Shown in pieces: positions 821 through 18,308 of a DNA stretch of 32,000 nucleotides. The notes under the pieces were generated by a model. That model did no database searches and was not told the DNA's origin. It saw nothing but the letters and a program-made list of their open reading frames with translations. This DNA comes from Candidatus Electrothrix sp. GW3-4 (GTDB taxonomy: Bacteria; Desulfobacterota; Desulfobulbia; Desulfobulbales; Desulfobulbaceae). Position 1 is the first letter of the stretch; every line of letters starts with the position of its first letter. The position numbers and the translations under genes were made by a program. Where the stretch lies: contig NZ_CP147990.1 of NCBI RefSeq assembly GCF_037902255.1, positions 1,050,001 to 1,082,000 of the forward strand, written 5' to 3'.

Positions 821-1077
821 GTGGTTGTGGAGTTGAACCTGGGGAATTTCACATATCCACTCCAGGTTCCCTTTAACGCATGCAGGAGTGGTTCAAAAAT
901 AAGACCGTGGGTGATCTTCTGTTCCGTATGCCTGGTAAACACCCTTCGTTATCGATGCTGGACATGGCTTCTGCCTCCGAGCTCGCTAGAAATATTGCAG
1001 GATAATAACTACACAAGTGATGTTGATGAATATGTGTGAAATATCCCCTGCATGGCCTTGTTTCTTGATTGGAGCAT

Positions 1078-1461
1078 TTAAAGTGTTATGTCAGATATCA
1101 TCTGCCTGATTGTTTCGCTAAGAGGAGGGAGATGTTTCTCACAAACCCAGAATATCTCCTCGGCATCAACATTGAAGTATTGATGGGCGATGATGTCTCT
1201 CAAGCCTTTTGCGCCTTTCCAATCAATCTCAGGATATTGCACGAGAAGCTCTCTCTTGGTTATTTTGTCGATGTTTTTTAAACTTTCTCCGATTGCTATC
1301 AGCTGCATGCAGATTGAATCCATCCGCTCCATGCCGAATGGAGAATCTGTAAAATCGGAAACCGTCTCGATTTGCTCGAAACGTTGCTGTATCTTTTCCG
1401 TTGCCTCCAGAAGCTGATGCAGGATATCCAGGACAAGGGTTTTGTCATACATACCGGGCAT
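1078..1461 (-). CDS. hepT: HepT-type HEPN/DUF86 toxin (type VII TA, RNase)
   Basis: Small ORF with the HEPN Rx4HxY motif (GLRDIIAHQYFNVD). It overlaps the 3' end of the upstream nucleotidyltransferase gene. The start is ambiguous: ATG at 1461 or 1452, TTG at 1470. Confidence 0.85.
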   Translation of the reverse strand: MPGMYDKTLVLDILHQLLEATEKIQQRFEQIETVSDFTDSPFGMERMDSICMQLIAIGESLKNIDKITKRELLVQYPEIDWKGAKGLRDIIAHQYFNVDAEEIFWVCEKHLPPLSETIRQMISDITL

Positions 1462-1735
1462 CCTTTTCAATGCGTTTCTTGAGGTATGGATTCATGTTCT
1501 TTCTGTTGCGGATAAGATCGACAGGCTTGTTAAAGAGCGCCTCAAGTTCCTCTTTGATATGCACCAAGGTGTAGAGATCAGGATATGCGGTTTCGATAAC
1601 AACATCAATATCGCTTTTGTCGGTTGCCTGTCCGGTGGAGTATGAACCGAATATGCCGATGTTGTTAATGCCGTATTTGCTGGAATTTTCCCTTTTGTAG
1701 CGGGCTAAGATAGTTAAAATATCCGAGGGAGTCAT
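1445..1735 (-). CDS. mntA: MntA-type minimal nucleotidyltransferase antitoxin
   Basis: 96-aa ORF with the pol-beta-type NTase signature GIFGSYSTGQATDKSDIDVVIE. GGAGAA lies 9 nt upstream of the ATG. The gene sits directly upstream of, and overlaps, the HEPN gene. Confidence 0.85.
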   Translation of the reverse strand: MTPSDILTILARYKRENSSKYGINNIGIFGSYSTGQATDKSDIDVVIETAYPDLYTLVHIKEELEALFNKPVDLIRNRKNMNPYLKKRIEKDARYV

Positions 1736-2220
1736 GTTTGGTTTTCTCCAGAAAATTTGTTGAGTGAATCCTGTGTTACCTGAAGCGCATCAAGTAAGGT
1801 TTGTGAGTATTGGATATTGAGAAAGGATAATGGTTCCGCTGTACTTTTTTACCCGTTTGCCTCATTTAGTTGGCAGTTATGTCAAGGGTATCTGCATGAA
1901 GTTTTTGGTAATCCTCTAGTGATTGAGACAGGAAACCACGTTCCACCTTTCCTCTACCTATGTAAAATACTTTTGATTCTGCTGGGAAGTAAGTCTCTTT
2001 CACCTTTTTAACTCTTACTTTTTCGGTAGGTTTAAGATTTTTCTTATCTTCTCTACCAGAATCTTCTTTAATGTGTTCAGATATAGATACAAAGGTCTAT
2101 AATGGACCCCTATTCTTGGACAGCTATTTAAGGTAGATTTTTTTCTAAAAATGCTGAATGTATTTTGGTGCGCTTGGCACGAGTCCGAAATTCATACAGC
2201 CACTACCGGAGAATCTACGC

Positions 2221-2499
2221 ATGTCACGTAAAAGAAGAGTCCACTCAGCTGCATTTAAAGGAAAAGTTGCACTTGAAGCACTGAAAGAACTAAAGCCGAT
2301 TAATGTACTGGCCTCCCAGTATGAGATTCAGCCAAACCAGATTAGCACCTGGAAAAAGCAGCTAAAAGAAGGAGTAACCGAAATATTCAGCCGAAAACGC
2401 GGTAAAGCAAAAGATGATTCCCGCAAGGCTGAAAAACGCTTATACGAAGAAATCGGTCGTCTGAAAATGGAGCTGGACTGGCTTAAAAAAAAAGTCTGA
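2221..2499 (+). CDS. IS3-family transposase OrfA (HTH)
   Basis: MSRKRRVHSAAFKGKVALEALKE...QPNQISTWKKQLKEG...LKMELDWLKKKV is the typical IS3/IS911 OrfA with a leucine-zipper end. It terminates just after an A9 run. ATG 2221 is preferred over the ORF-track start at 2158. Confidence 0.85.
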   Translation: MSRKRRVHSAAFKGKVALEALKELKPINVLASQYEIQPNQISTWKKQLKEGVTEIFSRKRGKAKDDSRKAEKRLYEEIGRLKMELDWLKKKV

Positions 2500-3328
2500 G
2501 CCCTACTCGGATCCCCTTGATTTAATTGATTCTCAGCATAGGTCGATCAGCATCCAGAGGCAATGTGAGCTGCTTGGCATCAGTCGATCCCGCTATTACT
2601 ACAAGCCAGCGGTTGAGAGCGAACTGAACCTCAAATTGATGCGAATTATCGATGAGATCTACACCGACTGTCCTTTTTACGGAAGCAGACGGATGGTCAT
2701 CGAGCTGGAACGGCGTGCTTTTCATGTTAACAGAAAACGGGTTCAACGGTTGATGCGCCTAATGGGGCTTGAGGCTATTTACCCGAAACCGAAACTAACT
2801 CATCGGAATATTGAACACAAAGTTTATCCATACCTTTTGAGGAACATCTTGATTGATCGTCCCAATCAGGTTTGGAGCACTGATATCACGTATATTCCGA
2901 TGCAGAGCGGTTTCATGTATCTGACGGTAATTATTGACTGGTACAGCCGATACATCCTCAGTTGGCGTATATCCAATACGATGGATAACGATTTTTGTGT
3001 CGAAGCTCTTGATGAAGCATTAACTCATGGATTACCCGATATTTTTAATACAGATCAGGGAGTGCAATTCACAAGCAAGCAGTTTACACAACGCCTGACA
3101 GATGTTGATGTAAAAATCAGCATGGACGGCAAGGGCCGAGCACTGGATAATATTTTTGTCGAGCGTCTTTGGCGTACAGTAAAGTACGAAAATATCTACC
3201 TGAAAGACTATCGAAATGGCAATGAGTTATACCACGGTCTGGAAGAGTATTTTTCGTTTTATAACACTCGACGTCCTCATCAGTCTTTGGGGTACAGATC
3301 TCCTGAAGATATTCATTATTGCTCATGA
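2465..3328 (+). CDS. IS3-family transposase OrfB (DDE integrase core), expressed only after recoding from orfA
   Basis: The frame is open from 2465 (..SISIQRQCELLGISRSRYYYKP..). DDE residues lie in WSTDITY, FNTDQGVQF and DNIFVERLWRTVKYE. The first in-frame ATG is at 2639. Confidence 0.85.
   Translation, partial: KWSWTGLKKKSEPYSDPLDLIDSQHRSISIQRQCELLGISRSRYYYKPAVESELNLKLMRIIDEIYTDCPFYGSRRMVIELERRAFHVNRKRVQRLMRLMGLEAIYPKPKLTHRNIEHKVYPYLLRNILIDRPNQVWSTDITYIPMQSGFMYLTVIIDWYSRYILSWRISNTMDNDFCVEALDEALTHGLPDIFNTDQGVQFTSKQFTQRLTDVDVKISMDGKGRALDNIFVERLWRTVKYENIYLKDYRNGNELYHGLEEYFSFYNTRRPHQSLGYRSPEDIHYCS
2485..2493 (+). promoter_or_regulatory. A9 slippery tract at the orfA/orfB overlap (recoding or transcriptional-slippage site)
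   Basis: Nine consecutive A occupy the last Lys codons of orfA. The orfB frame overlaps this tract. Confidence 0.5.
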
Positions 3329-3396
3329 GATACAGTCAAACAAATATAGGAGGAAATCACCAGATAAGAAAGTTTGTTGTTAGCCCGAAATCTATC

Positions 3397-3794
3397 TTAA
3401 ATTATGCTAAATTTTGTGTTGACTATGGGGTCCACTTTAGTCTGGGTATCGCTTGGAAGATTTTTGCCAACAAATGTTAAAACTATTTCCAAATTAGTTT
3501 CGTCTATATCTTCTTTGAGAATTGCATCTAGTAAAAATGGCAGCCTATGTGCTGTTTTTGACTTGGCGATCATGGCATTTAAAGCAAAATGATAAGCCAT
3601 AACAGTCTTGTGAAGTTCAACGCCTTGGCGTGGGAAAGAGTGGATGCTGTACAAGTCCAAGTATCTAGGTTCTGTTAACGGCTTAAGATTTAATTGCGAT
3701 GTGTAATCTGAAAATATTTTTTTAAACGCCATTTCTTTTTTTAACCGAGCAGTTATTGTGTCTTGTTCTGTAGCCATAGAATTAAGAGACGCTC
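3397..3794 (-). pseudogene. C-terminal part of the IS630-disrupted Rad50/SMC-like ATPase gene (Walker-B-like lobe)
   Basis: ORF 3397..3777, plus 6 upstream in-frame codons, continues the reading frame of 5028..6211 once the IS is removed. It contains HRLPFLLDAILKEDID, a hydrophobic strand ending in Asp (Walker-B-like). Confidence 0.7.
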
Positions 3795-3881
3795 TAGTGC
3801 TCTGTAAAATCTAAATTTTAGGGTAGCGTATTTAAAATTAATGTAGCATGTTGTCCGAAAAAAAAATTGAAAGAGGATTTC

Positions 3882-4325
3882 ATGCCAAAAAAATACATTG
3901 TCCAATTGACTCCAAAAGAACGCTGTCATTTACAGGAGGTTATCAAAAAGCTTTCGGGGGGCAGCCAGAAAGTCCGTCGTGCTCACATCTTATTGAAAGC
4001 TGATGCAAATGGCCCCTGTTGGAAAGACAGCAGGATAGCAGAAGCATTCAACTGTAGGACAAAAACGGTTGAGAACATCCGTCAAAATTTTGTTTTGCAC
4101 GGTTTTCAACAGGCTCTTGACGGAAAAAAACGTGCAACCCCGCCTACTCCGAAACTATTGAATGGGGAGCAGGAGGTTAAAATCATTGCCACTCGTCTTG
4201 GTTCACCTCCGCCGGGATACGCAAATTGGTCACTGCGCCTTTTAGCCCGACATGTTGTTGAATTGGAAATAGTTCCGTCGATCAGCCATGAAACTATTCG
4301 CCAAGTAATAAAAAAAACGGGATGA
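3882..4325 (+). CDS. IS630-family transposase, N-terminal HTH part (ORF1)
   Basis: MPKKYIVQLTPKERCHLQEVIKK...RRAHILLKADANG is the typical IS630/Tc1-like HTH region. AAAGAGGA lies 4 nt upstream of ATG 3882. The ORF ends just after an A8 run. Confidence 0.85.
   Translation: MPKKYIVQLTPKERCHLQEVIKKLSGGSQKVRRAHILLKADANGPCWKDSRIAEAFNCRTKTVENIRQNFVLHGFQQALDGKKRATPPTPKLLNGEQEVKIIATRLGSPPPGYANWSLRLLARHVVELEIVPSISHETIRQVIKKTG
4310..4317 (+). promoter_or_regulatory. A8 tract: probable -1 programmed frameshift site joining IS630 ORF1 and ORF2
   Basis: An A AAA AAA heptamer lies in the ORF1 frame. A -1 slip gives ..VIKKNGMNNRKIQYWVIPP, which resembles the single-ORF IS630 transposase linker KKN-x-LKPW..W.IPP. 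Confidence 0.6.
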
Positions 4326-5017
4326 ACAACCGGAAAATCCAATACTGGGTTATTCCACCAAAACACGATGCGGAATTCGTGGCCAACATGGAAGATGTGA
4401 TAGAGGTTTATGAAAGACCGTATAATCCTAATCATCCTTTTCTTTGTATGGACGAACAACCAGTTCAGCTGATAAAGGAAACTCGTTTACCTATCCCGGC
4501 AACTAAAAATCATGCTAAACGCGTTGATTATGAGTATGAGCGTAACGGAACAGCCAGTATTTTCATGTTCACCGAGCCTCTTTCAGGCTGGCGTGAAGCC
4601 ACAGCTCGTCCTCGGCGGACTAAAACAGATTGGGCGATCGAAGTGGCTCGCCTCCTTGAAGGTCGCTATGCAGAATGTGAAAAGATAACGTTGGTTTGCG
4701 ATAATCTCAACACCCATACAAAGGGAGCTTTTTATGAGGCTTTTCCTCCTGAACGTGCTCGTGCATTAGTACGCCGGATTGAATTTTGTTACACACCGAA
4801 ACATGGTAGCTGGCTCAATATAGCAGAAAACGAATTGAGCTCCATGACTCGACAATGTCTTGCCAATCGTCGTATAGGAGATATCGAGACGTTACAGAAA
4901 GAGATTGCCGCATGGTCAAGCGATGTGAATAACACTCAACGTGGTGTTGAGTGGCAAATGAAAATTTCTGATGCCCGGTGCAAATTAAAATCCGTTTACC
5001 CTAAAATTAAGTCGTGA
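4322..5017 (+). CDS. IS630-family transposase, DDE catalytic part (ORF2, -1 frame relative to ORF1)
   Basis: WVIPPKHDAEFVANMEDVIEVY, then LCMDEQ, LVCDNLNTH and SWLNIAENE, form the DDE triad context of IS630. The frame is open from 4292 and is in the -1 frame relative to ORF1. Confidence 0.88.
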   Translation: MNNRKIQYWVIPPKHDAEFVANMEDVIEVYERPYNPNHPFLCMDEQPVQLIKETRLPIPATKNHAKRVDYEYERNGTASIFMFTEPLSGWREATARPRRTKTDWAIEVARLLEGRYAECEKITLVCDNLNTHTKGAFYEAFPPERARALVRRIEFCYTPKHGSWLNIAENELSSMTRQCLANRRIGDIETLQKEIAAWSSDVNNTQRGVEWQMKISDARCKLKSVYPKIKS

Positions 5018-5027
5018 CAGAGCACTA

Positions 5028-6211
5028 GTAACTTCTAATTCATTTTCGAATGTTTCAATGTCTGCTTGCATTTTTTTGTATAGCTTAATGTTAGCTTTGT
5101 TATCAATCCACTGTTCAAATGTTACCCCTTCTAGGTTCTTTTCTAAAAGAATACCGTAGTCATCATTAATTTCTTTCTTGATTTTGGCTGTTTTTTTGTG
5201 CGATGAGTTTATTTTTGATTTTTTCTCAATAAGTTTATCAGTAATATGTGATTCAAGTTCAACCGTATCATGATATTTTTGATAGTGGCTATATAATCCT
5301 TCCAAAGAATAAGCCAATACCTGTGTGCAAGCTGGACATCTATCAATGTCGTTGTAATTTTGCTTCTTTATGTTTTTCTTAGTCTTTTTGAGGATCTTAT
5401 GGTGGTTCTGTAATAGAGAAAGTTCATTGCAGAGCCTGATGTAATTATCCCTTTCTTGCTCTAACAAGTTTGACATCTGGATGTATTTTTCAACGTATTC
5501 CTCTGCCTGATCACCAAATGTTTCATCAATCAATTTAGAAAACTGAAGCTCTGCTTTCTTGCTGTATCGCTTGAGGTTGCGAATGTCAGCTGATAGCCGA
5601 TCTTTTTGCTGAGTCAGTTTTCTGTGTTTCACACGGTCAAAGTTATTGCTAACCCCTAGGTAATAATCCAAGTAGTCATCTTTAAAGCCCTTGTAATATT
5701 GAAGGTTAGAAAAAGACTCGCGCAAATACACCCAGCCAACAGATTGAGAAATGTAATATGGCAAAAACATGCATTCAAGTGGAGCGGCCCTCAGTTCACC
5801 CTTCTGTTCTAAATACATTGTGAAACTAACTAAGTCACGTATGTATTCTTTGAGTTTAACGTGCTCAACACTATTGTCTGCATCAATTCCATAGAAAGGA
5901 ACTACTTTGCCACTTGGCTCTTTGACATAAATGGATTTTGGCTCTCTAATAATTGTGTATTCTTCTTCGGTTCCATTGGCTATCTTTGTGAAATCTACTC
6001 TGAAGGTAGGTTGATAACCGAGGATTTCATCTAAATTTTCTCTAACGTCATTAACACCAAAAGTAAATAGTAGGCTCTGAATCAGTGAGCTTTTTCCTGA
6101 TGTGTTACGTCCACTAATAATGTTTGCCCCCGGAGAGAACTCATCGTAGAAGCAGCAATTGTGCAGCTCTGAACTGACAAATAATCTGTTAAACCTAATG
6201 ATTACATTCAT
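5028..6211 (-). pseudogene. N-terminal part of the Rad50/SMC-like ABC ATPase (LmuB-like), truncated by IS630
   Basis: The Walker A motif GRNTSGKS is at 6089-6112. A long K/E/L/Q-rich heptad region is interrupted by CPAC (5327-5338). As it stands the ORF runs on to 4985 through 13 IS-derived codons. The start is ATG 6211 (MNVIIRFNRLF) or GTG 6244. Confidence 0.7.
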
Positions 6212-6219
6212 AGGGAAAC

Positions 6220-7329
6220 CTAGTAGTATTCTACAAATGAGCACAAAGTAGAGAAGAATATGTCGATATCTTTTAGATTCATGCTATGTTGACTCTTGAT
6301 GTCAGAAACATATGCATCAAACATGTCGCCATGACTGTGGTAGTCCATAGAATAGTCATTTTCCCTGATGAATCCTTTGATTATTTGATGTTCATTATTG
6401 CTCATATCTTTTAACAGCTCAAATGTGTTCCTGATGTAATTTTTGTGATGATTCTGGATGCCTATAGGGACTCGAAACTTATGGCATAGCTCCGTTGAAT
6501 AATTTCTCCAAAACTCAAATGTCTTTTGCTCTGTCTCAATGATATCAATTGCCTTCTTGACTTCATCGCCTTCGACTCTCTTGCTACTGTCAAGTAAGGT
6601 GACAACCTTGCCCTGATTGTACACAGCTTCGACTTCTCTGAAGAGGCTAAGAAGTAGCTCAATTGCTGCTAACGGGTCTGAGACATGTGAAAATTTCCTA
6701 CTCATAAGTCCTACTAGGCTATCTTTTTGCCTGTTCTTATTTCGTGGAAAATCGATCCATTGAATGCAAAAGTTGTCCAGTTCAGCTTTGTGATAGGTAA
6801 TCTTTTTCTTTTTACAAAAGTTATCTACTTTCTTGTTTATTTTCTCTTTGATTTCATCAGGAATGGCATTGAAGCCACACTTACAGTTCTGTTCGTTTAG
6901 AAGATACGTTATTTCCTCTTTCCTATCTTTCTTCTCTTTTGCATTAGGCTTGTAGTTCAGTTTGATGTCAGTGTTAGATACGAACGTTAGCTCATGGGTA
7001 TAGTTTGGGCATTTGCGCGCTGGGTCGCTTATAAGATCGTTTCCAACTTCAAGTATTTTTGCAATCACTTCAGAAAATCGTTCATTTATAGTCCAGACGT
7101 TGCCTGAGAGTTTTTTGGCCTGATAAGAATGAATTTCTTTAATATTGCTGCGACAATTTGTTCTATAGCAGAAGAGAAAATCATCGTGATGTTCAATGCA
7201 TAGGAAAAACTCTCTTCCCTTAAACCGGTCGTAATCATCAAGTAGTAAGTACAACGCACAATTACGCTGAAATTCGAAACCTAACAAAGCATCTACACCA
7301 GCGTTCGCTGCTTTTTTCCTTGTGGTCAA
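6220..7329 (-). CDS. DUF4297/Cap4-like PD-(D/E)xK nuclease-domain protein (LmuA-like effector candidate)
   Basis: 369-aa ORF. A TTG start at 7329 has AAGGTGA 4 nt upstream. The N-terminus AGVDALLGFEFQRNCALYLLL...FFLCIEHHDDFLF...IHSYQAKK matches my memory of the G-F-x-F/Y-Q ... E-x2-DD ... Q-x-K core of DUF4297/Cap4 nuclease domains. Its stop lies 8 nt before the ATPase ATG. Confidence 0.55.
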   Translation of the reverse strand: MTTRKKAANAGVDALLGFEFQRNCALYLLLDDYDRFKGREFFLCIEHHDDFLFCYRTNCRSNIKEIHSYQAKKLSGNVWTINERFSEVIAKILEVGNDLISDPARKCPNYTHELTFVSNTDIKLNYKPNAKEKKDRKEEITYLLNEQNCKCGFNAIPDEIKEKINKKVDNFCKKKKITYHKAELDNFCIQWIDFPRNKNRQKDSLVGLMSRKFSHVSDPLAAIELLLSLFREVEAVYNQGKVVTLLDSSKRVEGDEVKKAIDIIETEQKTFEFWRNYSTELCHKFRVPIGIQNHHKNYIRNTFELLKDMSNNEHQIIKGFIRENDYSMDYHSHGDMFDAYVSDIKSQHSMNLKDIDIFFSTLCSFVEYY

Positions 7330-7692
7330 AATTTCACCTTTTAAAAGCTAGAATATTGGAGTTACTTTAGACCGATGCGCTTACTTATAATTATTTATTG
7401 TCGAAATATTTTTTCTGATGACGGTTGAAAATGACAATATTGGGCGAATGCCTCCTAATAATTTGTTCAGCACAGAATTCTAATTCTGCAATCTCCCTGC
7501 ATTGCAACCTACTGCCACAAAAAAACTCCAACGAAAGCTAACTTCTGGATAAAATCTAAACTTTTTTCTCTCTGCGCCCCAAGAAATTACCACTCACTCG
7601 CAAAAAATCAAGACAAAAAGGGTTAACATCTCGTTCTAATTACTTTCTATTACACACCAAGAGACCGCGCGGAACAGCGAACAGACTTAGCC

Positions 7693-10600
7693 TCACTCCA
7701 CCCTCCTCACCCCGGCCCCCTGCACAACACTCTGCCCACCCGTGCCCGGAACCACCTCTAGCTGACAGGCGATCCGCTCCTTAAGAGCCCCCACATGGGA
7801 GATCACCCCGATCAGCTTGCCCTCGCGGCGGAGCCCGGCCAGGGTCTCCAGGGCCGTTTCCAGGGCCTCCTCATCCAGGGCACCAAAGCCTTCATCAAGA
7901 AAGAGGGAGTCCACCCGCACATTGCCGCCCACCATCTCGGAGAGCCCCAGGGCCAGGGCCAGACTGACCACAAAGCTTTCTCCACCTGATAGGTTCTTGG
8001 TGGAGCGGATCTCTCCGGCCTGCCAGGAGTCGATCACGTTGAGTTCCAGGGGCTGGGCCTGATCCCGGACCAGCAGGTAGCGGTCGGTCATCCGGGCCAG
8101 TTGCTCGTTGGCCCGGGAGACCATGAGCTCAAAGGTCAGGCCCTGGGCAAAGTTACGGTATTTTTTGCCGTCTGCCGAGCCGATCAGGTCATGGAGTTCC
8201 TTCCAGCGCAGGCATTCCTTTTTCTGGGCCTCCAGGCCGGTCAGTAGGTCCTGCTGCCGGGCGCGCTGCTCCTTATCCGCCTGTAATTGCTGGTTCAGGG
8301 AACCGATCCGCTCTGTTGCCTGCCTGCGGGCCGTGATCAGCGCTGTATGTTCTTTGCTGAGTTCTTCAGAATCCGTCTCAGTGAGTCGGAGCTGTTCTTC
8401 CTCCTGAAGGCGGGTCTGCCTGTCCTGCAGCCGTTCGTCAAGCCGGGCTCGGCGGTTCTGCAATGCCTCAGCTCGTTTTTGCAGACGGCCCCGTTCCTCC
8501 TCAGGCAGACGTGCGGCCTGCCAGGCCGCCTCATTGGTATACTGGTTTTCCTGCAGCCGTTGCAGGAAGGCCTCCTCCAACCCGGTCAAGGCCTCTGTTC
8601 TCTTGTTGATGGATGCCTCTCGCTCCTTGATCCCGGCCCTGGTTAGCTCGCATTCCCTGAGCAGCTGGGATTGCGTCTTCTGTTCCTGATTTACGCGCTC
8701 TTCAGCCTGGTTACGGGCCGTTGTCAGCTTGCGTTCTTCGGCGTCCGGGTTCTTCTTCTCGCCAAAGAGCTGGAAGCGCTCTTCGCCAAGGGCCTGGCGT
8801 TGCTGGCTGTCCTCGGCTATTGCCTGTTCCAGGTTTGCCAACTGGGCCGCACGTGCGTTCATGCCTGCCTGCACCTCTCGCAGCTCCGTTTGCAGGGCCG
8901 TGATCCGTTCTCCTGCTGCGCTGCAGGCCTTTTGCTGCTGCTGCCAGCAATCTTTGCGGGTGGTCAGGTCGGCAAGGATCTGGGACAGGGCAGGGAGGCG
9001 AAGCTCTGTGATCCCGTATGCTGCCAGTTCTTCCAGGGCCAGGGCGCGGATTTGTTCCAGCTCCTTTGCTGTGGCCTGTTGCTCCTGGCCAAGACGCTGC
9101 TGCTCCTGTTCCGTCTGCTCCTTGACATGAACGGCCCGCTCCTGCTCCTGTATGGTCTGGTTGACCTTGGCCTGCTGCTCCTCCAGGCTCTTGCTGAGTC
9201 GGGCCAGTTTTCTGTCCAGCTGCTCCAGGGCCTCCAGCTGCTGCTGGATGCTGCTCAGCCGTTCTTCAAGCCGACCCAGGCGCGCGGTCAATGCCGAGGG
9301 CGTTTCTTGTTGCAGGCTATTCTCTGCCCCCGGCGCCAGGGCCTCGAATTCGCGGCATTGTTCTGCGATTCGTTCCTCTGCCTCCTGAATGGCCTCTTGC
9401 TTTTCTCGGGTTCGCTCGGCAAGGTTTTGTCCATCCTGGATCAGACGGGCCGCCTGGACCTCGGCCCTGTTCAGCGCCTGTTCCGCCTGCTTTGCAGCTG
9501 TCAGGGCGGCTTGCAGATTTTTTTCATATTCGTTGAGGGGCGGGATATCGCCCGTAGCATAGGGGTGCTCCAGGGCGCCGCAGAGGGGGCAGGGGGTGTT
9601 TTTCCGCAGGTGGGTCCGTTCTTCTTCCAGGTCCCGGATTCGCTTGGCCTGCTCGACCAGGGTCCGTCGGGTTTCCACCTCCTCTTGGGCCTGATCCTGT
9701 TGTTGCCGTAACTGGCGAAGTTGCTGCTCTTGCTCTTTGTTTGCCTCAGCCAGCTCTTTCTGGCGGAGACGGATCTTGGTCAGCTCCTGTTCCACCACTT
9801 CTTTTTTGCGGAGGATTTCCAGCAGACCTCCCAGGATATTGCGCTGCTCAGCAAGGAGGAGCTGTTCCCGGCGCAGCTCCTCCAGTTGCCGTCCTTGCAG
9901 GCGGGCTCCGGCCTCCTCCTGGACCTCTTGCCGTTGCTGGCGAAGAGTGGCAAGATGCTTCTCTGCTGCGGTGCAGGCCTGCACCTTTGCCTGCCAGGCC
10001 TGGGCCGCCAAGCCTGCCTGCTGCTCTGCCTTTTCCAGGGCCGGACCAAGGGCCGCCTGTTTATCAGCAATCTCTCTCAGGCGGGCAAGGGTCTTGCAGA
10101 TGCCTGCCAGATCGCTCATCAGCTGTTCATCCACCTGATGGGCATCCAGATAGGTACGGCTTTGCCTTTGCTGCGCTTGGGCAAGGCTGAGATCCTGTTC
10201 AAACTGAGCAGTCTGTTTTTGTCCTGCGCCGTTTTTTTGTTGGAGATCATGGTGGATAGCCTGTTCTTTACCGATGGCCTGTTCCTTTTCCCGGATGCGG
10301 AGATCCAGCTCCCGGACCTGTTTGAGCAGGCTATGCCCTTGGTCCCAGTTCCTTTGGCAGTGCATGAGCTGATCTTTGCTTCTGGCAAGCCGTTCTTCTA
10401 TCTGGGCAAGGGCCTGTTCCTGGGCTGGTAATCTCTGCCAGAGGGCCTCCACTGTTGCGCGCTCTTCTGCCTGCTGCTCGCGGGTTGCAAGGAGTTGGGC
10501 ATAATCCCCTCCCAGAACCAGGGCCTGTTGGGCTGCCTTGAGTCGGGCCGCATCCTCAGCAAAGGTCTGCTCTTCCTGGGTCAGACCTTCCTGCTCTTTC

Positions 10601-11388
10601 GTTATCCGTTCCAATTCTTCGCGCAGGGCCTTGATCCTGTTGAGCCAGGCCAGGGCTGCGGCCCTTTCCTCCATTGCTGTATTGAGTTGGGTTTCCTCTT
10701 GCCGTTGTTTATCCAATTCCGCCTGGATCGTTGCAGCTTCAGCCGGAGTGAGCAGTTGCATGGATCCAGTCCGTTCCTCCAGTTTTTTTTGTTTCGCTTG
10801 TTCGTCAGTAAAGCGAGCATGGACCCGTTTGGAGATCTCGCTATAGATTGCGCTGCCGGTGATCTGTTCCAGGATCGGGGCGCGTTCATCCTGACTGGCC
10901 TGGAGAAAGGCGGCAAAGCCGCCCTGGGCCAGGAGCATGGAGCGGGTGAAGCGATCAAAATCCATGCCCGTGTATTCTTCCACCTGCTGGGCGACCTCGT
11001 TGGCCTTGGTGGTCAGGATACGTCCGCTCTCTACCTCGGAGAGCTCCCGTTTCGGGGGCTGGAGGGCACCGTCTGCCTGTTTGCGTCCCCTGTGCTGGTA
11101 CCAGGAGGAGCGAAAGATGCCCTTGATGGTGGCGAATTCCACTTCAGCAGAGCATTCCCCGCTCTGGCGGGACATAATCTCGTTGCCGCCCTTGGTTACC
11201 CGATCCAGGCGGGGGGTGCGCCCGTACAGGGCCAGGCAGATGGCATCCAGGATGGTGGTCTTGCCTGCCCCGGTGGGGCCGGTGATGGCGAAGATGCCGT
11301 CGCTCATGAAGGCCGGGTGGGTGAAATCCAGTTCCCATTTGCCGGTCAAAGAGTTGAGATTGTGGAGACGAAGTCGAAGGATGCGCAT
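7693..11388 (-). CDS. sbcC: exonuclease SbcCD, ATPase subunit SbcC (Rad50 family)
   Basis: MRILRLRLHNLNSLTGKWELDF...ITGPTGAGKTTILDAICLALYG (Walker A), a very long Q/E/A/L/R coiled coil, the zinc hook CPLCGALEHPY, C-terminal LSGGESF and LFLDEGFG. The start is placed at ATG 11388; the upstream 28 codons of the ORF track only translate a palindrome. Confidence 0.92.
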   Translation of the reverse strand: MRILRLRLHNLNSLTGKWELDFTHPAFMSDGIFAITGPTGAGKTTILDAICLALYGRTPRLDRVTKGGNEIMSRQSGECSAEVEFATIKGIFRSSWYQHRGRKQADGALQPPKRELSEVESGRILTTKANEVAQQVEEYTGMDFDRFTRSMLLAQGGFAAFLQASQDERAPILEQITGSAIYSEISKRVHARFTDEQAKQKKLEERTGSMQLLTPAEAATIQAELDKQRQEETQLNTAMEERAAALAWLNRIKALREELERITKEQEGLTQEEQTFAEDAARLKAAQQALVLGGDYAQLLATREQQAEERATVEALWQRLPAQEQALAQIEERLARSKDQLMHCQRNWDQGHSLLKQVRELDLRIREKEQAIGKEQAIHHDLQQKNGAGQKQTAQFEQDLSLAQAQQRQSRTYLDAHQVDEQLMSDLAGICKTLARLREIADKQAALGPALEKAEQQAGLAAQAWQAKVQACTAAEKHLATLRQQRQEVQEEAGARLQGRQLEELRREQLLLAEQRNILGGLLEILRKKEVVEQELTKIRLRQKELAEANKEQEQQLRQLRQQQDQAQEEVETRRTLVEQAKRIRDLEEERTHLRKNTPCPLCGALEHPYATGDIPPLNEYEKNLQAALTAAKQAEQALNRAEVQAARLIQDGQNLAERTREKQEAIQEAEERIAEQCREFEALAPGAENSLQQETPSALTARLGRLEERLSSIQQQLEALEQLDRKLARLSKSLEEQQAKVNQTIQEQERAVHVKEQTEQEQQRLGQEQQATAKELEQIRALALEELAAYGITELRLPALSQILADLTTRKDCWQQQQKACSAAGERITALQTELREVQAGMNARAAQLANLEQAIAEDSQQRQALGEERFQLFGEKKNPDAEERKLTTARNQAEERVNQEQKTQSQLLRECELTRAGIKEREASINKRTEALTGLEEAFLQRLQENQYTNEAAWQAARLPEEERGRLQKRAEALQNRRARLDERLQDRQTRLQEEEQLRLTETDSEELSKEHTALITARRQATERIGSLNQQLQADKEQRARQQDLLTGLEAQKKECLRWKELHDLIGSADGKKYRNFAQGLTFELMVSRANEQLARMTDRYLLVRDQAQPLELNVIDSWQAGEIRSTKNLSGGESFVVSLALALGLSEMVGGNVRVDSLFLDEGFGALDEEALETALETLAGLRREGKLIGVISHVGALKERIACQLEVVPGTGGQSVVQGAGVRRVE

Positions 11389-11419
11389 GTTTTTTTGGCG
11401 GGGTGAGGTCGTTTCAGGG

Positions 11420-11447
11420 GTAGGGGCACGGCATGCCGTGCCCCTAC
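11420..11447. repeat. perfect 28-bp GC-rich palindrome in the sbcD-sbcC intercistronic gap
   Basis: GTAGGGGCACGGCA|TGCCGTGCCCCTAC is fully self-complementary. On the plus strand it is followed by GGTTTTTATT (terminator-like for antisense transcription). On the coding minus strand there is no U-run. Confidence 0.8.
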
Positions 11448-11452
11448 GGTTT

Positions 11453-12700
11453 TTATTCAGCCATCGGGTCATCCTGCTCCACGGTCAGGGCAATTTCCTG
11501 ATAGGCAGCCAGCAGGGAAGGACGTTGCTCTGGAGGGATGGCATGGGCATCCAGGCAGCGGCTGAAGACCTCTTCATGGTGGAGATCGGCCAAGGTCTCT
11601 TCGGCCTGGACAGGGTGCAGGGCCTGTTCGATAATGCGGTGATTGCGGATGCGCAGGATCTCCAGGCTGCTGTCTGCTATGATTTCATCAAGACGCTGGC
11701 GCAGATCGGCGATCAACTCCTCGCCCTGATAGATAATCTCCAGCCAGATGGCCCGGCCTTCCAGTTTCAGGGTGGTGAGCTCGGCCTGGATATGGTCCCA
11801 GTCCCCCTGGATGCGCTTGATGGCTTGAAAGACCGGGACGGTCAGCGGGGTAACGGTCGGCGGGCCGGATTCAGGGAACGCAAGCAGACAGACCTTCTTT
11901 TCCTTTTCTGCCTCGCCAAAACCCATTACCAGAGGGGCTCCGCTGTAGCGTCGGGTTTCGTTGCCCCCTACCTTTTGCGGGGCATGGAGATGGCCTAGGG
12001 CCAGGTAATCCAGGCTATCCGGGAAAGCGTCCGCACTCACAGAGGCCAGGGAGCCCACATAGAGATTACGTACCCCGTCGCCTTCCACGGTGCTGCCGCC
12101 AGCGGTGAAGAGATGACCCATCCCGATGATCGGCACCGGACGGGCCAGCTTGTTCCGCTGCTCCTCGGCTTCGGCGCAGACCTCGCTATAATGCTGTTTG
12201 ATGCCCTGGACCAGATCCCGTTCCCGGTCATCCTGGTCCTGTCCGGCGACTGCTGTGCGGATATCCCGGTCGCGGAGAAAGGGCACCGCGCAGATGATGG
12301 CCTCGGGTTCTCCGGCCTGATCTTTGAGGACCAGGACTTCCTCGGCAGGCGAGGAGGGCAGGGCGGCCAGGACGTGGATATTAAGGGCGAGCAGGAGTTC
12401 TCGCGGGGCGCTGAGAAAGGTGGGCGAGTCGTGGTTGCCAGCGGTCACCACCAGATGACGGCAGGACGAGGCAGCAACCCGGCAGAGGAAGTTGTAGTAG
12501 AGCTGCTGGGCCCGGTTGCTGGGGGTGGTGGTGTGGAAGACGTCGCCCGCCACCAGCAGGATGTCCACCTGCTGCTCGACTATGGTGTCGTGGAGCCAGT
12601 TAAAAAAGGCGGTGAACTCGGCGTAGCGGTGGCGTCCGTAGAGGGTGCGGCCTATATGCCAGTCTGAGGTGTGGAGGATACGTAAAGAGGGAGAGCTCAA
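11453..12700 (-). CDS. sbcD: exonuclease SbcCD, nuclease subunit SbcD (Mre11 family)
   Basis: LRILHTSDWHIGRTLYG...LLVAGDVFH...VTAGNHD...GHLH are the calcineurin-like phosphoesterase motifs of SbcD. The start is placed at TTG 12700 (MSSPSLRILHTSDWH), giving 415 aa. The longer ORF-track version (to 12922) runs into the repeat array. Confidence 0.85.
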   Translation of the reverse strand: MSSPSLRILHTSDWHIGRTLYGRHRYAEFTAFFNWLHDTIVEQQVDILLVAGDVFHTTTPSNRAQQLYYNFLCRVAASSCRHLVVTAGNHDSPTFLSAPRELLLALNIHVLAALPSSPAEEVLVLKDQAGEPEAIICAVPFLRDRDIRTAVAGQDQDDRERDLVQGIKQHYSEVCAEAEEQRNKLARPVPIIGMGHLFTAGGSTVEGDGVRNLYVGSLASVSADAFPDSLDYLALGHLHAPQKVGGNETRRYSGAPLVMGFGEAEKEKKVCLLAFPESGPPTVTPLTVPVFQAIKRIQGDWDHIQAELTTLKLEGRAIWLEIIYQGEELIADLRQRLDEIIADSSLEILRIRNHRIIEQALHPVQAEETLADLHHEEVFSRCLDAHAIPPEQRPSLLAAYQEIALTVEQDDPMAE

Positions 12701-12819
12701 TTTTTTTTGAAAAGTTAATTGGTTGGCTGTGCTGTGTTTTTGTCCCGCTGCGGCTGAGATGCGCTCTGCCGCAGCTTGTAGGCGATAAATATACAGAGTT
12801 TTCTCCCACAAAGCACGCC

Positions 12820-13071
12820 GGAATCGGCCCAAAGCACACTGGAATTGCCGTAATTCCAATCGGAATTGCTCTGATTCCAACGTGAATCGATCCAATTCCT
12901 GTTGGAATCGGGTCAAAGTCAACAGGAATTGCCCTGATTCAAATTAACATCAGGCCGATTCAAATTTGATTTGCCTTGATTCCAATTGGAATCGTGTCAA
13001 TGTCAGTCGGAATCGGAGTGATTCCAATTGACATCGGGTTAATTTCAATTGACTTTGGAGTGATGCAAACG
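12820..13071. repeat. array of twelve tandem 21-bp repeats (consensus approx. GGAATYGSNNTGATTCCAATT), non-coding
   Basis: GGAAT-type motifs recur at 12820, 12841, 12862, 12883, 12904, 12925, 12988 and 13009, an exact 21-nt spacing. Degenerate copies sit at 12946, 12967, 13030 and 13051. Most units also carry the inverted half-site ATTCC. GATTCCAATTGGAATC at 12978-12993 is a perfect 16-bp palindrome. Of the frames checked, none stays open across the array: the sbcD frame stops at 12944-12946 and the 12976 ORF frame at 12967-12969. Confidence 0.9.
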
Positions 13072-13114: not shown

Positions 13115-14701
13115 CTATCGATACTTGGTTCGATGTGATTGCCAGGCATAAAATTCTGGATAGAACCTTTCGATTAAGATTTGAACCCCTGTTCTTTTCT
13201 TCGGGTCAGGTTCTTTGAGCCATTCTTTCAAAATGCGAAGCTGGGTCTTTTCGAAATTAACTGTAAAATAAAATTCATAGTCCCGATTTTTTGTAACCAA
13301 CCATTCTTTCAGCTCACGAAGAATGGGGGCGTTAGGGACTAAGATAGAATGGAAAGGTCCGTATGTTTTGATATATTTTTTCCAACTAAAATTAGTGAAA
13401 TTAAAGTGATGTATTTTTTCTCTCAATTCCCCCGCTAAATGCACGAACTGAACCAGCTGGTCTGTCGCGCGTAACGGGTCCTGTCCAGTAAGTTGTTCAT
13501 GTACCACTCCCCAAGCCAGGAGAAACTCCTGCACCGTATAATGACTGAAGCGAAAGGCTCGGTCGGAGTTACGATTCAACAGGGAGCGTCCACCCAATTC
13601 AAATTTTTTCAACCAAGAAATGTTTCTATCAGCAAGAATCAACTGTTGTAATTCCTCTTCACTAATAATTTGTGTTCCCTGTCGCTGCATCTGTTCTGCG
13701 ATTTGCAGACAGACGTTAAACAGTTCCTTACGCTCTGGCACCCGTCGTTGCTCATGTTGTTTTTGCAAATTGCGTACTTCGCGATCAAGCCATTCATTAA
13801 CCAATTCCTGATACACTGTATAGGCATTCCAGTACTCCTGAGGATTATCTACTTCTAGCAGCTTGTCTATATGGCTTAACAACAAGGGCCGCATTCGTAG
13901 ATCCTGCATTTGTTCAAGTAGATGGTCTGCCCACTGCCTTTGCTGTCTGACTTTTCCGCTCCTGAACAACAAACGTTGACTGAAGTTCAGAGGTAGTTTT
14001 TTGTTGATGAATTCTTCTACTTGTTCAGGGGAGAAAGGTGAGAGAAAGAGTACCGGACAGTGATAGCCTGAAAGAACTTTGATTTCCGATCGCCCTCTAC
14101 TTTCTGGTTCCATTTCTGGAAAAAATTGAGTGCGGCTTGAGATGATTACCCGACGGAAGTCCTCGCTGGCACGCAATAATTCGAGTAATCGATTTTTAAT
14201 CCGCTTCCAGGCCTGAGGGTCTTCGTCTAAGGCATCGAGAAGAAGGAAGGTCTTCCCTTTGTTTGGTAACTTACTGATTTCTTCTAAAGTCCCATCGCCT
14301 AGCTTAAACAGCTCGCACTTGTATCTTAGCTGCCAAAAATTGGTCAAATGCATTAGTTTAAGCATTAGGAGAAGTGAGGTTTTTCCCATACCCGCATCGG
14401 AGAGGATGAACATCTGGTGACGACCATCCTTTTCTAGCGGCAATTTGCCCTGAAAAAATTGATTGATTCGGTCAAAGGCAGATTGTCGAGCTGCGGACAG
14501 CAGATCATCCTGATGTGCGTCTGCTGGATTTCGATCCTGCAGGTCAGGCACCACGTATACATCTTTGAGTACGTTGGGATCGAAAATAATGTCTGTTAGA
14601 CGGCCAACCTCCTTGGCTCGCTCACCTCTTAGTTTGGCAAGCTTTTTCCAGAGTGGTTTTATCCAGTCAGTTTTGACAAAGGTCAGCCTTTCCAGAGCCA
14701 T
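13115..14701 (-). CDS. NACHT-family STAND NTPase without a recognisable effector domain (bacterial NLR-like)
   Basis: Walker A SDAGMGKTSLLLML, Walker B TFLLLDALDE, RVIISSRTQ, LSPFSPEQVEEF, RPLLL and FSHYTVQEFLLA occur in NACHT order. AGGGGGA lies 5 nt upstream of ATG 14701. Confidence 0.75.
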   Translation of the reverse strand: MALERLTFVKTDWIKPLWKKLAKLRGERAKEVGRLTDIIFDPNVLKDVYVVPDLQDRNPADAHQDDLLSAARQSAFDRINQFFQGKLPLEKDGRHQMFILSDAGMGKTSLLLMLKLMHLTNFWQLRYKCELFKLGDGTLEEISKLPNKGKTFLLLDALDEDPQAWKRIKNRLLELLRASEDFRRVIISSRTQFFPEMEPESRGRSEIKVLSGYHCPVLFLSPFSPEQVEEFINKKLPLNFSQRLLFRSGKVRQQRQWADHLLEQMQDLRMRPLLLSHIDKLLEVDNPQEYWNAYTVYQELVNEWLDREVRNLQKQHEQRRVPERKELFNVCLQIAEQMQRQGTQIISEEELQQLILADRNISWLKKFELGGRSLLNRNSDRAFRFSHYTVQEFLLAWGVVHEQLTGQDPLRATDQLVQFVHLAGELREKIHHFNFTNFSWKKYIKTYGPFHSILVPNAPILRELKEWLVTKNRDYEFYFTVNFEKTQLRILKEWLKEPDPKKRTGVQILIERFYPEFYAWQSHRTKYR

Positions 14702-15347: not shown

Positions 15348-16226
15348 CTATTTCCGCAAGTCGCCGACTTCTCCCGCAGTCAGCCCGGTCATCTCTGCAA
15401 TCTCGTTATCGTCAAGTACACCTTTATTAATGATTTTCAGCGCAATCTCAACAGCTTTTCGCTGTTCTCCCTGCTTGGCACCTTTATTAATACCGGCTGT
15501 ATATGTGGATTCCACCATACTTGCCTGATAATGGAGGTCATCCTGATATCTTTCATAGGCCCGACGCTCTTCATCAGACAGCTTGAGAATATCCAGCTCC
15601 TGCTTGGCCTTCTTTATTCCTTTTGCCTTGAAATCGCTCTTGATCTCCTCGTTTTTCAGGAAATAAATCCACTCATCCAAGGTGTCTTTGGCGATATCGT
15701 CGAATTTATTGACCTTGATCAGGTAGTACTCCGGGAAAATTTCATGGAGCTTATCCTTTCCGTACAGCTCCTGCTGTTCATCAGAAAGCTGCAATACATC
15801 CTGTTCATGCAATCCTCGAAAAGAAGTGGTACCGTGATACACATAGTCGTCTCCGTGCCCCAGATCAAAGTAAAGAATATTGATCGAGATAACCTTGGCG
15901 ACCTTGGAATACGGGTTACTTTCGTGAAGATGCTCGGTGATCACCTTAGAGGTACCAAAGAGAATGCGTTGGAGGTAATCAAACTCCCGTTCGTACTGCA
16001 CTTCAATAATGATAAGCTCTTCCTTCTCGTTTTTTACCTTCAGGTCCACCCTGTTGAATTTATCGCGAGCATCTTCTTTATTGCCTTCACTTTCAAGGAG
16101 TTCCAGGATCCTGACATTTTCCATAAGGAGTTCACTGAGAAAGCCTTCCAGGATTTCAAAGTTGGCCTTGCTCCGCAGGAGTTTTTTCATGGCCCAGTCA
16201 AAGCTGATCAGTTTTCTTCGCGACAT
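15348..16226 (-). CDS. Rpn-family / PD-(D/E)XK (PDDEXK_2, TIGR01784-like) recombination-promoting nuclease / putative transposase, copy 1
   Basis: ISFDWAMKKLL...FLSELL...NRVDLKVKNEKEELIIIEVQYE...YLQRILFGTS...VISINILYFDL is the characteristic D...E-x-Q nuclease core and layout of this family. GGAGCC lies 5 nt upstream of the ATG. Confidence 0.8.
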   Translation of the reverse strand: MSRRKLISFDWAMKKLLRSKANFEILEGFLSELLMENVRILELLESEGNKEDARDKFNRVDLKVKNEKEELIIIEVQYEREFDYLQRILFGTSKVITEHLHESNPYSKVAKVISINILYFDLGHGDDYVYHGTTSFRGLHEQDVLQLSDEQQELYGKDKLHEIFPEYYLIKVNKFDDIAKDTLDEWIYFLKNEEIKSDFKAKGIKKAKQELDILKLSDEERRAYERYQDDLHYQASMVESTYTAGINKGAKQGEQRKAVEIALKIINKGVLDDNEIAEMTGLTAGEVGDLRK

Positions 16227-16317: not shown

Positions 16318-16914
16318 CTAGGGAAAGATCGCGCCATCGTTCCCGCCATGATTGGTCGTGCGATCAAACTCGTCTTCAATGATCAGGTATTTATCAAGAA
16401 CCTTATGGCCTAAACGGTTTGCATCAAGCTCCAGCTGTTGACACGTTCGTCGTGGCTTCATGTTGCGTATTTTCTCTTCAATTTCATTGGCAGCTCGTAC
16501 CCCAATATCTTTATGTCCATTTTCATGCTGCAATAAGGCCCTTAAATACCTTTCCCACTTGTTCACCAATGCCTTTGGCAATGGCGCTGATCTCTTTAAT
16601 TTTGGCAAAATATACTGGACATCTACCGTTGTGCTTACCTGGGTTATCCTGCATTGATCCTCTGATGCATTCCAGTGATACTTCCAATGAACAAGCCAAG
16701 TCGTATAGGCATCATATTTTTTTCCCTTCTCGTTCACTGGCGTCTTTCGGTCGAGATCGTTTCGTATCTCCCTTGCCGTGCTGCCACTGACTCTGTAGTA
16801 ATCTTTTGTTATATCGACGACTGGAGCTGATCTCGCAAGTACGGGCAAGCTCAGCAGCGAAATAATAGCTGCGAATACCAACATTATTCGCATTATTCGT
16901 TGTGGATATCTCAT
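16318..16914 (-). CDS. DUF922-type secreted Zn-metalloprotease-like protein
   Basis: N-terminal signal peptide MRIMLVFAAIISLLSLPVLARSAP, the YYRVSGST..., TTW...W motifs, and an HExxH-type site LQHENGHKDIG. Confidence 0.65.
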   Translation of the reverse strand: MRYPQRIMRIMLVFAAIISLLSLPVLARSAPVVDITKDYYRVSGSTAREIRNDLDRKTPVNEKGKKYDAYTTWLVHWKYHWNASEDQCRITQVSTTVDVQYILPKLKRSAPLPKALVNKWERYLRALLQHENGHKDIGVRAANEIEEKIRNMKPRRTCQQLELDANRLGHKVLDKYLIIEDEFDRTTNHGGNDGAIFP

Positions 16915-17953: not shown

Positions 17954-18308
17954 TTTTCTCTCCATTTTTTGGATCGTATAATGCTGCTATTTCACCCATT
18001 CATCGCAGCCATAATGCCATGCTTGCAAGGAAAAAGCAATTGGACAGCGCCTCTTTTTATTTCCTGTTGTTCCTTATGTTCCGGTTCTCAGCAATACTGT
18101 TGCTGGGAGATAAAGGGGGAGGGCGATGTTTCTCTGTCCATGGTGTGTCCGGGATGCAGGTGTAATAAAGAGATATCATTAGAGGTGTTATTTATTGTGA
18201 AGAAATATCAAACCCTGCTGGTGAAAAGGCTGTACATAAAATGTAAAATTTTGTACGGTGGCCGAAATAGAATTCTGCCGCAGGGAAAAAATGTTAAGGA
18301 TTGGAAAG

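Follow-up and report, generated by a model that had tools for sequence, protein, structure and literature searches.

The genome of Candidatus Electrothrix sp. GW3-4 very probably carries, at one locus, a type I (two-gene, lmuA-lmuB) Lamassu system that has been inactivated by two independent insertions into lmuB; we put the probability of this reading at about 0.92. The locus was found in a stretch of 32,000 nucleotides, referred to here as the window. Its features, with coordinates in the window, are as follows.

6220..7329, minus strand: lmuA, intact, 369 aa (open reading frame; full-length match to PADLOC LmuA PDLC00244)
5028..6211, minus strand: lmuB segment 1, codons 1 to 394 plus bases 1 and 2 of codon 395
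6089-6112, minus strand: Walker A motif GRNTSGKS, in lmuB segment 1
5327..5338, minus strand: CPAC predicted zinc-hook motif at the apex of the coiled coil, residues C292-P293-A294-C295
3797..5025, plus strand: IS630-family element, 1229 bp, inside lmuB codon 395 (repeats, TA duplication, transposase ORFs)
3444..3796, minus strand: lmuB segment 2, from the third base of codon 395 through the first of codon 513
3523-3549, minus strand: HRLPFLLDA, in lmuB segment 2, with the Walker B motif FLLDA at 3523-3537
2099..3439, plus strand: IS3-family element, 1341 bp, in lmuB codon 513 (repeats, GTCT duplication, ORFs)
1866..2098, minus strand: lmuB segment 3, remainder of codon 513 to codon 589 and the stop codon (translation; alignment with homolog C-termini)
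2073-2087, minus strand: H-loop SISEH, in lmuB segment 3

The product of lmuA is the same sequence (100% identity) as WGN25_04935 of Ca. Electrothrix sp. GW3-4. It matches PADLOC LmuA over profile positions 1-361 of 366 (E 5.5e-147, 488 bits). Its N-terminus is a Cap4/DUF4297 PD-(D/E)xK-type nuclease domain (Pfam Cap4_nuclease, E 1.6e-11, profile positions 2-149 of 200), and residues Q21, E46, D49, D50, Q70 and K72 are invariant among 35 homologs. The C-terminal domain is helical and resembles that of BcLmuA; the best PDB match to the AF2 model (pLDDT 87.7) is BcLmuA (9ux7_C), followed by Cap4 (6vm5). Domain content and fold thus describe an effector nuclease fused to a C-terminal domain which is predicted to dock on LmuB. 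A preliminary description of this DNA, made from the letters and their open reading frames, had placed a 369-aa frame with nuclease motifs at this position and called it a DUF4297/Cap4-like protein. The frame and motifs are present as described, and the Pfam and PADLOC matches agree on the nuclease type.

As had also been reported, the second gene begins 8 nt (AGGGAAAC) past the TAG stop of lmuA, with an ATG at 6211. It runs on the minus strand to 1866 and encodes 589 aa after removal of both insertion sequences. The element in codon 395, already recognized in the preliminary description, is bounded by 32-nt inverted repeats (3794-3825 and 4997-5028) and a TA target duplication (3795-3796 and 5026-5027), and contains ORFs with HTH_32 (3867-4325) and DDE_3 (4322-5017) domains. 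The DDE_3 transposase, terminal inverted repeats and TA duplication are those of the IS630 family, and excising the element restores the lmuB reading frame. The element in codon 513 lies between GTCT target duplications at 2095-2098 and 3440-3443 and encodes orfA (HTH_Tnp_1, 2158-2499) and orfB (rve, 2636-3328); this gene pair, the duplication in the 3-4 bp range and the imperfect terminal repeats assign it to the IS3 family. Its excision joins DTQT to FVSISEH exactly as intact homologs have it.

The first of the three lmuB segments runs from the N-terminal ATPase lobe through the outgoing coiled coil and the zinc hook into the return coiled coil. Segment 2 holds the end of the coiled coil, a signature-like SFPRQGVE and the Walker B motif, and segment 3, which the preliminary description missed, completes the ATPase head at its C-terminus and includes the H-loop. 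The AF2 model of LmuB places helices 193-280 and 303-429 between two head lobes, with CPAC between the helical stretches 220-280 and 303-356. LmuB is an SMC/Rad50-like ABC ATPase in which Walker A and Walker B lobes are parted by an antiparallel coiled coil; the Rad50-like layout of head, coiled coil, CxxC, coiled coil and head proposed earlier is supported, and the Walker A, CPAC and HRLPFLLDA motifs quoted for it were all located. Judged by its sequence, CPAC is a predicted zinc hook: C292, P293 and C295 do not vary among homologs as distant as ~38% identity, and a search with the LmuB family profile reaches the Rad50 hook of P. furiosus (1l8d), at E 0.024. Both Walker motifs are invariant among LmuB homologs (D485 invariant, A486 invariant or nearly so).

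The rebuilt LmuB matches PADLOC LmuB (PDLC00250) over profile positions 1-580 of 582 (E 2.4e-242, 804 bits), and 11 further PADLOC LmuB profiles match as well. In a Pfam search LmuB gave only weak SMC_N (P-loop) and AAA matches and DUF3732 was not detected; Pfam alone might suggest novelty, and it was the PADLOC profiles that settled the Lamassu assignment. When solved structures were searched with Foldseek, the predicted LmuA and LmuB were both best matched by the type I LmuAB-DNA complex 9UX7 (chain A, E 1.9e-15; chain C, E 5.2e-6, TM 0.57/0.67). HMMER detected no similarity to the solved BcLmuA and BcLmuB chains, whether single proteins or family profiles were used, so the link to the characterized type I system rests on the PADLOC profiles, the operon architecture and the fold. 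Sequence searches of the PDB, run with each protein singly, with three profiles of the family and with a homolog from a Bacillus cereus plasmid, returned only P-loop-level matches to Rad50, RecF and LmuB.

The cassette is thus of a kind already known, an ordinary type I Lamassu. The preliminary description was right to call it Lamassu-like, as the full-length matches to both profiles show; its suggestion of a possible new variant does not stand, since 488 and 804 bits amount to a textbook LmuA/LmuB match. The features it had listed as departures are familiar ones. A CxxC at the arm apex is the known LmuB zinc hook (285CQYC288 in BcLmuB), and the single CxxC here occupies nearly the same position. 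An Asp-Ala Walker B belongs with the "deviant" LmuB Walker B, lacking the catalytic Glu, which has already been described; in FLLDA this Glu is replaced. The lack of LmuC defines type I Lamassu, and neither lmuC nor a conserved third gene accompanies this pair. Type I is held to reflect LmuC loss in one clade, and short LmuB proteins average ~600 aa (PMC12663957). The locus differs from type I in that its genes are not both intact, lmuB being split by the IS630 and IS3-family elements; this bears on whether the copy works and leaves its homology untouched. One residual nuance is that Walker B reads D-A here versus the published short-Lamassu consensus hhhhD[Q/S/T/E].

Members of the PADLOC family (LmuA PDLC00244/LmuB PDLC00250), from which the window locus differs only in its two insertions and its host, a cable bacterium, occur in Vibrio, Pseudomonas, Alteromonas, Klebsiella, Yersinia, E. 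coli and Desulfogranum. Identity of this pair to intact LmuB (585-591 aa) and LmuA (369-374 aa) proteins is 52-86%, the rebuilt LmuB being 52-84% identical to its homologs along the whole length. Among related loci, 39 have flanking sequence long enough to judge; they come from four phyla (Gammaproteobacteria, Desulfobulbales, Bacteroidota and Bacillota), and in every one lmuA is directly upstream of lmuB; gene order is kept, and the two genes are adjacent or overlapping. No conserved third gene was found on either side in 37 related loci, and clusters of neighboring genes arise only from near-identical loci, with none common to the family. The check on intact loci proposed in the preliminary description thus shows constant co-occurrence, a conserved CPxC and no third partner. 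The orthologous system of Desulfogranum marinum also contains two IS elements, there in lmuA, a case of parallel IS-mediated decay in a related Desulfobulbales genome.

Among named systems, the type I LmuAB of Bacillus cellulasensis NIO-1130 (the system of Doron et al. 2018; cryo-EM 9UX7/9UX8) has the same lmuA-lmuB operon without lmuC, an LmuA with N-terminal Cap4/DUF4297 nuclease and helical C-terminal domain, and an LmuB of similar size (~560-590 aa) with a deviant Walker B and a single CxxC hook (285-288, compared with 292-295 here). It differs in that its hook is CQYC rather than CPAC, there is no HMMER-detectable similarity (~14-16% identity in structural alignments), and only the window copy is disrupted by two IS elements. 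For this system a 2:1 LmuB:LmuA stoichiometry, a Zn hook at 285CQYC288, sensing of DNA ends and an LmuA tetramer have been described (10.1101/2025.06.23.660979). Type II Lamassu/DdmABC (Vibrio cholerae and Salmonella enterica LmuACB; 9HQU/9HQX, 9UXH, 9NYG) likewise pairs a Cap4-type LmuA with a short, Rad50-like LmuB whose Walker B is deviant, its LmuB chains forming the second tier of Foldseek matches (E 1e-10 to 1e-11), and its sequester-and-release logic would be generally alike. However, type II encodes a third subunit, LmuC, between lmuA and lmuB, where we find an 8 nt gap and, in the related loci, no conserved small gene. Its LmuB proteins carry Pfam DUF3732, which was not detected here, and VcLmuB is without a zinc hook, whereas a CPAC hook is present in our protein. 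The hook is needed for defence in the Salmonella system (10.1101/2025.03.14.643221).

It is unlikely that the CPxC/Walker B D-A clade is a mechanistically distinct two-gene Lamassu lineage. The idea draws on the undetectable sequence similarity to BcLmuAB and on the Ala, invariant or nearly so, at a position that in other LmuB proteins is Q, S, T or E; LmuB of such a clade might be an ATP-binding, essentially non-hydrolysing switch, or LmuC might have been lost independently in this lineage. In the cited Lamassu literature we found no experimental test of any member of this sequence clade.

By analogy with Lamassu complexes of solved structure, two LmuB molecules of an intact type I system of this kind would dimerize via their folded coiled coils and CPxC zinc hook, and the dimer would hold one LmuA monomer near the hook by its C-terminal domain, keeping the nuclease inactive. 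The ATPase heads would bind a DNA end from phage or plasmid replication; LmuA would then be released to form a tetramer, whose Cap4-type nuclease would degrade DNA and abort the infection. The copy described here is almost certainly non-functional as a defence, to judge from the gene disruption, because lmuB is cut at codons 395 and 513 and no full-length sensor is possible.

We consider it improbable that the remnant remains active, with LmuA alone or held by LmuB residues 1-394 acting as a toxin or partial defence, or that autotoxicity of the intact system led to selection for the insertions. In the 1-394 fragment one head lobe is retained, along with the outgoing arm and the hook. In solved complexes LmuA binds the hook-proximal coiled coil, LmuA-releasing mutants are hyperactive or toxic, and every family-invariant residue is kept in the lmuA product here. 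The intact IS copies and perfect duplications suggest recent events, and the Desulfogranum ortholog was struck in the same manner; these repeated hits might mean that in Desulfobulbales an autotoxic system is selected against. Against this, the sequence gives no sign of expression or activity, BcLmuA alone aggregates, and IS-rich genomes gather insertions in dispensable genes without selection.

Still less credible is the proposal of the preliminary description that, once the IS630 element is removed, the pair is a functional new Lamassu-like variant with an unusually compact (~527 aa) Rad50-like ATPase. Deleting 3797-5027 and translating the minus strand does yield an ORF of 527 aa that reads through without a break and contains the Walker A, CPAC and Walker B motifs. 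However, this ORF matches PADLOC LmuB only to position 514 of 582, and the 13 codons at its end (K514 onward, KVDPIVNTKFSII) are non-native: K514, natively F, straddles the junction and the sequence from V515 on is read from the IS3 terminal repeat. The 77 residues absent from this version (TFVSISEH to DITAN and the stop), including the H-loop, are found across the IS3-family element at 1866-2098, and intact homologs are all 585-591 aa. The apparent shortness of LmuB thus arose because the second IS was overlooked, and the lower cassette boundary of 3397 is an artefact of the same kind, since lmuB reaches 1866.

The GC content of the cassette is 0.36-0.38, against 0.60 for sbcC and 0.51 for rny, in agreement with the earlier hand counts; lmuAB probably sits in a horizontally acquired low-GC island, as had been proposed. 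Next to it is a genuine sbcDC pair (7693-12922) whose SbcC, of 1259 aa, has the reported CPLC, and an unrelated MNT/HepT pair lies downstream of lmuB in the window. PADLOC gave no match to neighboring unexplained ORFs, and a promoter and terminator scan of 1000-7800 gave counts not above those of shuffled sequence. Rad50/SbcC-Mre11/SbcD has been proposed as the evolutionary source of Lamassu (PMC12663957), and LmuB shares its layout of heads, coiled coils and CxxC hook, with weak sequence matches in the P-loop and hook regions. Rad50/SbcC differs in its much longer arms (1259 aa for SbcC here versus 589 for LmuB), its canonical D-E Walker B with catalytic Glu, where LmuB has D-A, and its Mre11-type phosphoesterase partner and repair role, whereas LmuB pairs with a Cap4 nuclease in defence. 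We rejected the adjacency of sbcDC as a meaningful link to Lamassu ancestry because GC differs sharply and homologous loci elsewhere are not beside sbcCD. Assignment to another defence family (Septu PtuAB, PARIS AriAB, Gabija, a CBASS Cap4 effector or HerA-DUF4297) or to a housekeeping Rad50/SbcC-type repair factor can be dismissed as next to impossible: weak P-loop PADLOC matches (PtuA, E 1e-4; AriA, E 7e-3), a Cap4 fold common to CBASS effectors and HerA-DUF4297, and Rad50 heads in sequence and fold searches are outweighed by full-length LmuB profiles scoring hundreds of bits higher, by the fact that neither this operon nor 37 related loci contain a SAVED domain, CD-NTase or HerA (the CBASS Cap4 effector has a SAVED/CARF sensor fused to the nuclease, plus a CD-NTase), and by the genuine, 60% GC sbcDC next door.

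The main value of these results is correct annotation, with little beyond it: a standard gene that carries multiple or nested IS insertions can be mistaken for a "compact variant." Of minor value are the record that a cable bacterium carries a Lamassu remnant, the parallel IS decay in Desulfobulbales, and the D-A Walker B, invariant or nearly so in the clade. In the GW3-4 genome database entry, a 408-aa "hypothetical protein," for which an exact-sequence look-up returned no contig, is really the first fragment of the twice-interrupted lmuB.

The locus is a known type I Lamassu system with a Cap4-nuclease effector. It lies downstream of sbcDC in a low-GC island, was probably acquired horizontally, and has been inactivated by insertion of an IS630-family and an IS3-family element in lmuB, the gene for its Rad50-like ATPase sensor. 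Its features are as follows.

6220-7329, minus strand: lmuA, the nuclease effector gene, a 369-aa ORF beginning MTTRKKAANAGVDALLGFEFQ
1866-6211, minus strand: lmuB at its true extent, 589 aa, interrupted at codons 395 and 513
6089-6112, minus strand: Walker A motif of lmuB, GRNTSGKS
5327-5338, minus strand: CPAC motif of lmuB
3523-3549, minus strand: HRLPFLLDA motif of lmuB
2073-2087, minus strand: H-loop SISEH in the C-terminal part of lmuB, absent from the 527-aa ORF discussed below
within lmuB, 1229 bp: IS630-family element with HTH_32 and DDE_3 transposase ORFs, TA being duplicated on either side
2099-3439, within lmuB, 1341 bp: IS3-family element whose two ORFs are of HTH_Tnp_1 and rve integrase-core type

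The preliminary description had delimited lmuA correctly, and its TAG stop is separated by 8 nt (AGGGAAAC) from the ATG of lmuB at 6211. The product, which is 100% identical to WGN25_04935 of Candidatus Electrothrix sp. GW3-4, aligns along its full length with the PADLOC LmuA profile PDLC00244 (E 5.5e-147, 488 bits) and matches Pfam Cap4_nuclease with an E value of 1.6e-11. Residues Q21, E46, D49, D50, Q70, K72, and K73 are invariant among 35 homologs, a pattern that fits the PD-(D/E)xK-type site proposed earlier from the sequence. For its structure, predicted with good confidence (pLDDT 87.7), the best solved match is 9ux7_C (E 5.2e-6, TM 0.57/0.67), with the Cap4 structures 6vm5 and 6vm6 ranking below it.

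The IS630-family element had also been recognized previously, as had the first three lmuB motifs listed; a 32-nt inverted repeat pair (3794-3825 and 4997-5028) flanks its two transposase ORFs. Deletion of 3797-5027 does restore the frame and yields the 527-aa ORF taken at that time to be the repaired gene, but this ORF is incomplete. Its match to PADLOC LmuB (PDLC00250) stops at position 514 of the 582 in the profile, and in alignment it diverges from every homolog past NLPSDTQT, where the homologs continue with FVSISEH...DT..I... for some 75 further residues. The missing C-terminus (TFVSISEHIKEDSGREDKK...LHADTLDITAN*) lies at 1866-2098 of the minus strand, beyond a second mobile element, which we assign to the IS3 family because of its HTH_Tnp_1 and rve integrase-core ORFs. 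This element is bounded by a perfect 4-bp duplication, GTCT (2095-2098 and 3440-3443). At the end of the 527-aa ORF, 13 codons are non-native: K514 spans the insertion junction, and the others are read from the IS3 terminal repeat.

Removal of both elements gives a single uninterrupted LmuB of 589 aa, which matches the PADLOC profile from position 1 to 580 of 582 (803.8 bits, E 2.4e-242) and, full-length but more weakly, 11 further PADLOC LmuB profiles. Its structure, likewise predicted with good confidence (pLDDT 82.3), finds 9ux7_A as the best solved match (E 1.9e-15), above the type II LmuB chains 9uxh, 9hqx, 9hqu, and 9nyg and above SMC and Rad50 heads. Both best matches are chains of 9UX7, in which the type I LmuAB of Bacillus cellulasensis is bound to DNA. 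In the public annotation the N-terminal lmuB fragment, reading into IS630, appears as a 408-aa "hypothetical protein" (P0050, WGN25_04930), which is 100% identical to the fragment in the window; the two downstream fragments are not recognized there as parts of the same gene.

The Lamassu assignment of the preliminary description is borne out by these full-length matches, and their ordinary character speaks against its suggestion of a possible new variant, for which four departures had been cited. The "unusually compact" ATPase is an artefact, because the 527-aa ORF ends in IS3 read-through and lacks the H-loop; intact homologs measure 585-591 aa, and short LmuB proteins have a mean length of about 600 aa (PMC12663957). 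Two genes, lmuA-lmuB, are the definition of type I Lamassu (10.1101/2025.06.23.660979; PMC12663957), which corresponds to LmuC loss in one clade of short Lamassu (PMC12663957), so that the missing third gene is no departure. Nor is the apical CxxC: BcLmuB, the B. cellulasensis protein, carries a zinc hook, 285CQYC288, at its head-distal end (10.1101/2025.06.23.660979), short LmuB proteins have zero, one or two CxxC motifs (PMC12663957), and the hook is needed for protection in a Salmonella system (10.1101/2025.03.14.643221). A "deviant" Walker B without the catalytic glutamate is likewise a known LmuB motif (PMC12663957; 10.1101/2025.06.23.660979). The only small difference is that the clade of the window protein has D-A, a pair outside the hhhhD[Q/S/T/E] consensus published for short Lamassu (PMC12663957). 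None of the four marks a new variant.

Relatives were collected as 37 loci from a one-genome-per-species scan and four by exact-protein look-up. Wherever a locus included enough upstream sequence, LmuB was found to begin at the end of an LmuA homolog, an adjacency spanning Gammaproteobacteria, Desulfobulbales, Bacteroidota, and Bacillota. Plasmid-borne relatives, in Bacillus cereus, Paenibacillus, Yersinia, and Klebsiella, sit beside a DUF4297 gene in each case. Clustering of up to three nearest genes per side revealed no LmuC or other conserved third component, genes being shared only among near-identical loci. C292, P293, and C295 of LmuB are invariant down to approximately 38% identity, and over the same range the Walker B hhhhD-A (D485-A486) is invariant or nearly so, with Gly in a few members. 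Four residues past Walker B (3523-3537, minus strand) lies an invariant K489-E490-D491. Over LmuB residues 241-343 the family profile also gives a weak match (E 0.024) to 1l8d, the crystal structure of the zinc hook of P. furiosus Rad50. Since HMMER detected no similarity of this clade to the solved BcLmuA or BcLmuB chains, the tie to the characterized type I system rests on the PADLOC profiles, including the 11 weaker LmuB ones, operon architecture, and fold. Among published work we found no experiment on a member of precisely this clade.

By analogy with the solved complexes, we infer that an LmuB dimer, joined via folded coiled coils and the hook, would sequester a single LmuA monomer by the C-terminal domain of the latter. 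Binding of a DNA end by the ATPase heads would set LmuA free, which could then tetramerize into an active nuclease and abort the infection. In the window lmuA is intact and lmuB cannot give a full-length product; the copy is therefore presumably dead as a defense, judging from its sequence. Both insertions look recent, because in each IS copy the transposase ORFs are still intact and the target duplications perfect.

The low GC content noted earlier is evident (lmuA 0.377 and lmuB 0.36, versus 0.60 for sbcC, 0.59 for sbcD, and 0.51 for rny). The neighboring genes are the following.

7693-12922, minus strand: sbcD-sbcC, a genuine pair of GC 0.59-0.60, immediately upstream of the Lamassu island
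1078-1735, minus strand: MNT nucleotidyltransferase (96 aa) and HepT-like HEPN RNase (130 aa), a toxin-antitoxin pair with overlapping genes, adjacent to lmuB on its downstream side
13115-14701, minus strand: 528-aa ORF just past sbcD, in a lower-GC stretch (0.438)
15348-16226 and 17060-17965, minus strand: two paralogous PD-(D/E)XK_2 (Rpn/transposase-like) ORFs flanking a DUF922 gene
16318-16914, minus strand: the DUF922 gene

SbcCD has been proposed as the ancestor of Lamassu (PMC12663957), and the SbcC here has 1259 aa and a CPLC hook. The adjacency nevertheless seems coincidental, since homologous Lamassu loci in other genomes do not adjoin sbcCD. PADLOC gave no match for the 528-aa ORF, the PD-(D/E)XK_2 ORFs or the DUF922 gene. 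The 528-aa ORF, whose sole Pfam match is a sub-threshold nSTAND3 NTPase (E 9e-5), may be an uncharacterized STAND-type gene. Among PADLOC candidate systems, the MNT protein matches PDC-S09 (E 5.5e-25), and the GC content of the MNT/HepT pair (0.435) lies between that of the island and the core genome.

Desulfogranum marinum (ERZ21873832 ctg9748l, L001:3441-9770) carries an orthologous type I Lamassu in which LmuB is intact and 78% identical. Its lmuA is in three pieces (aa 1-66, 60-346, and 344-368), broken by two transposase-bearing insertions, DDE_Tnp_1 and DDE_5. Two Desulfobulbales genomes thus each have a system inactivated by two IS elements, in lmuB in one and lmuA in the other. Truncated LmuA proteins occur in several other homolog lists (P0190, P0191, and P0200).
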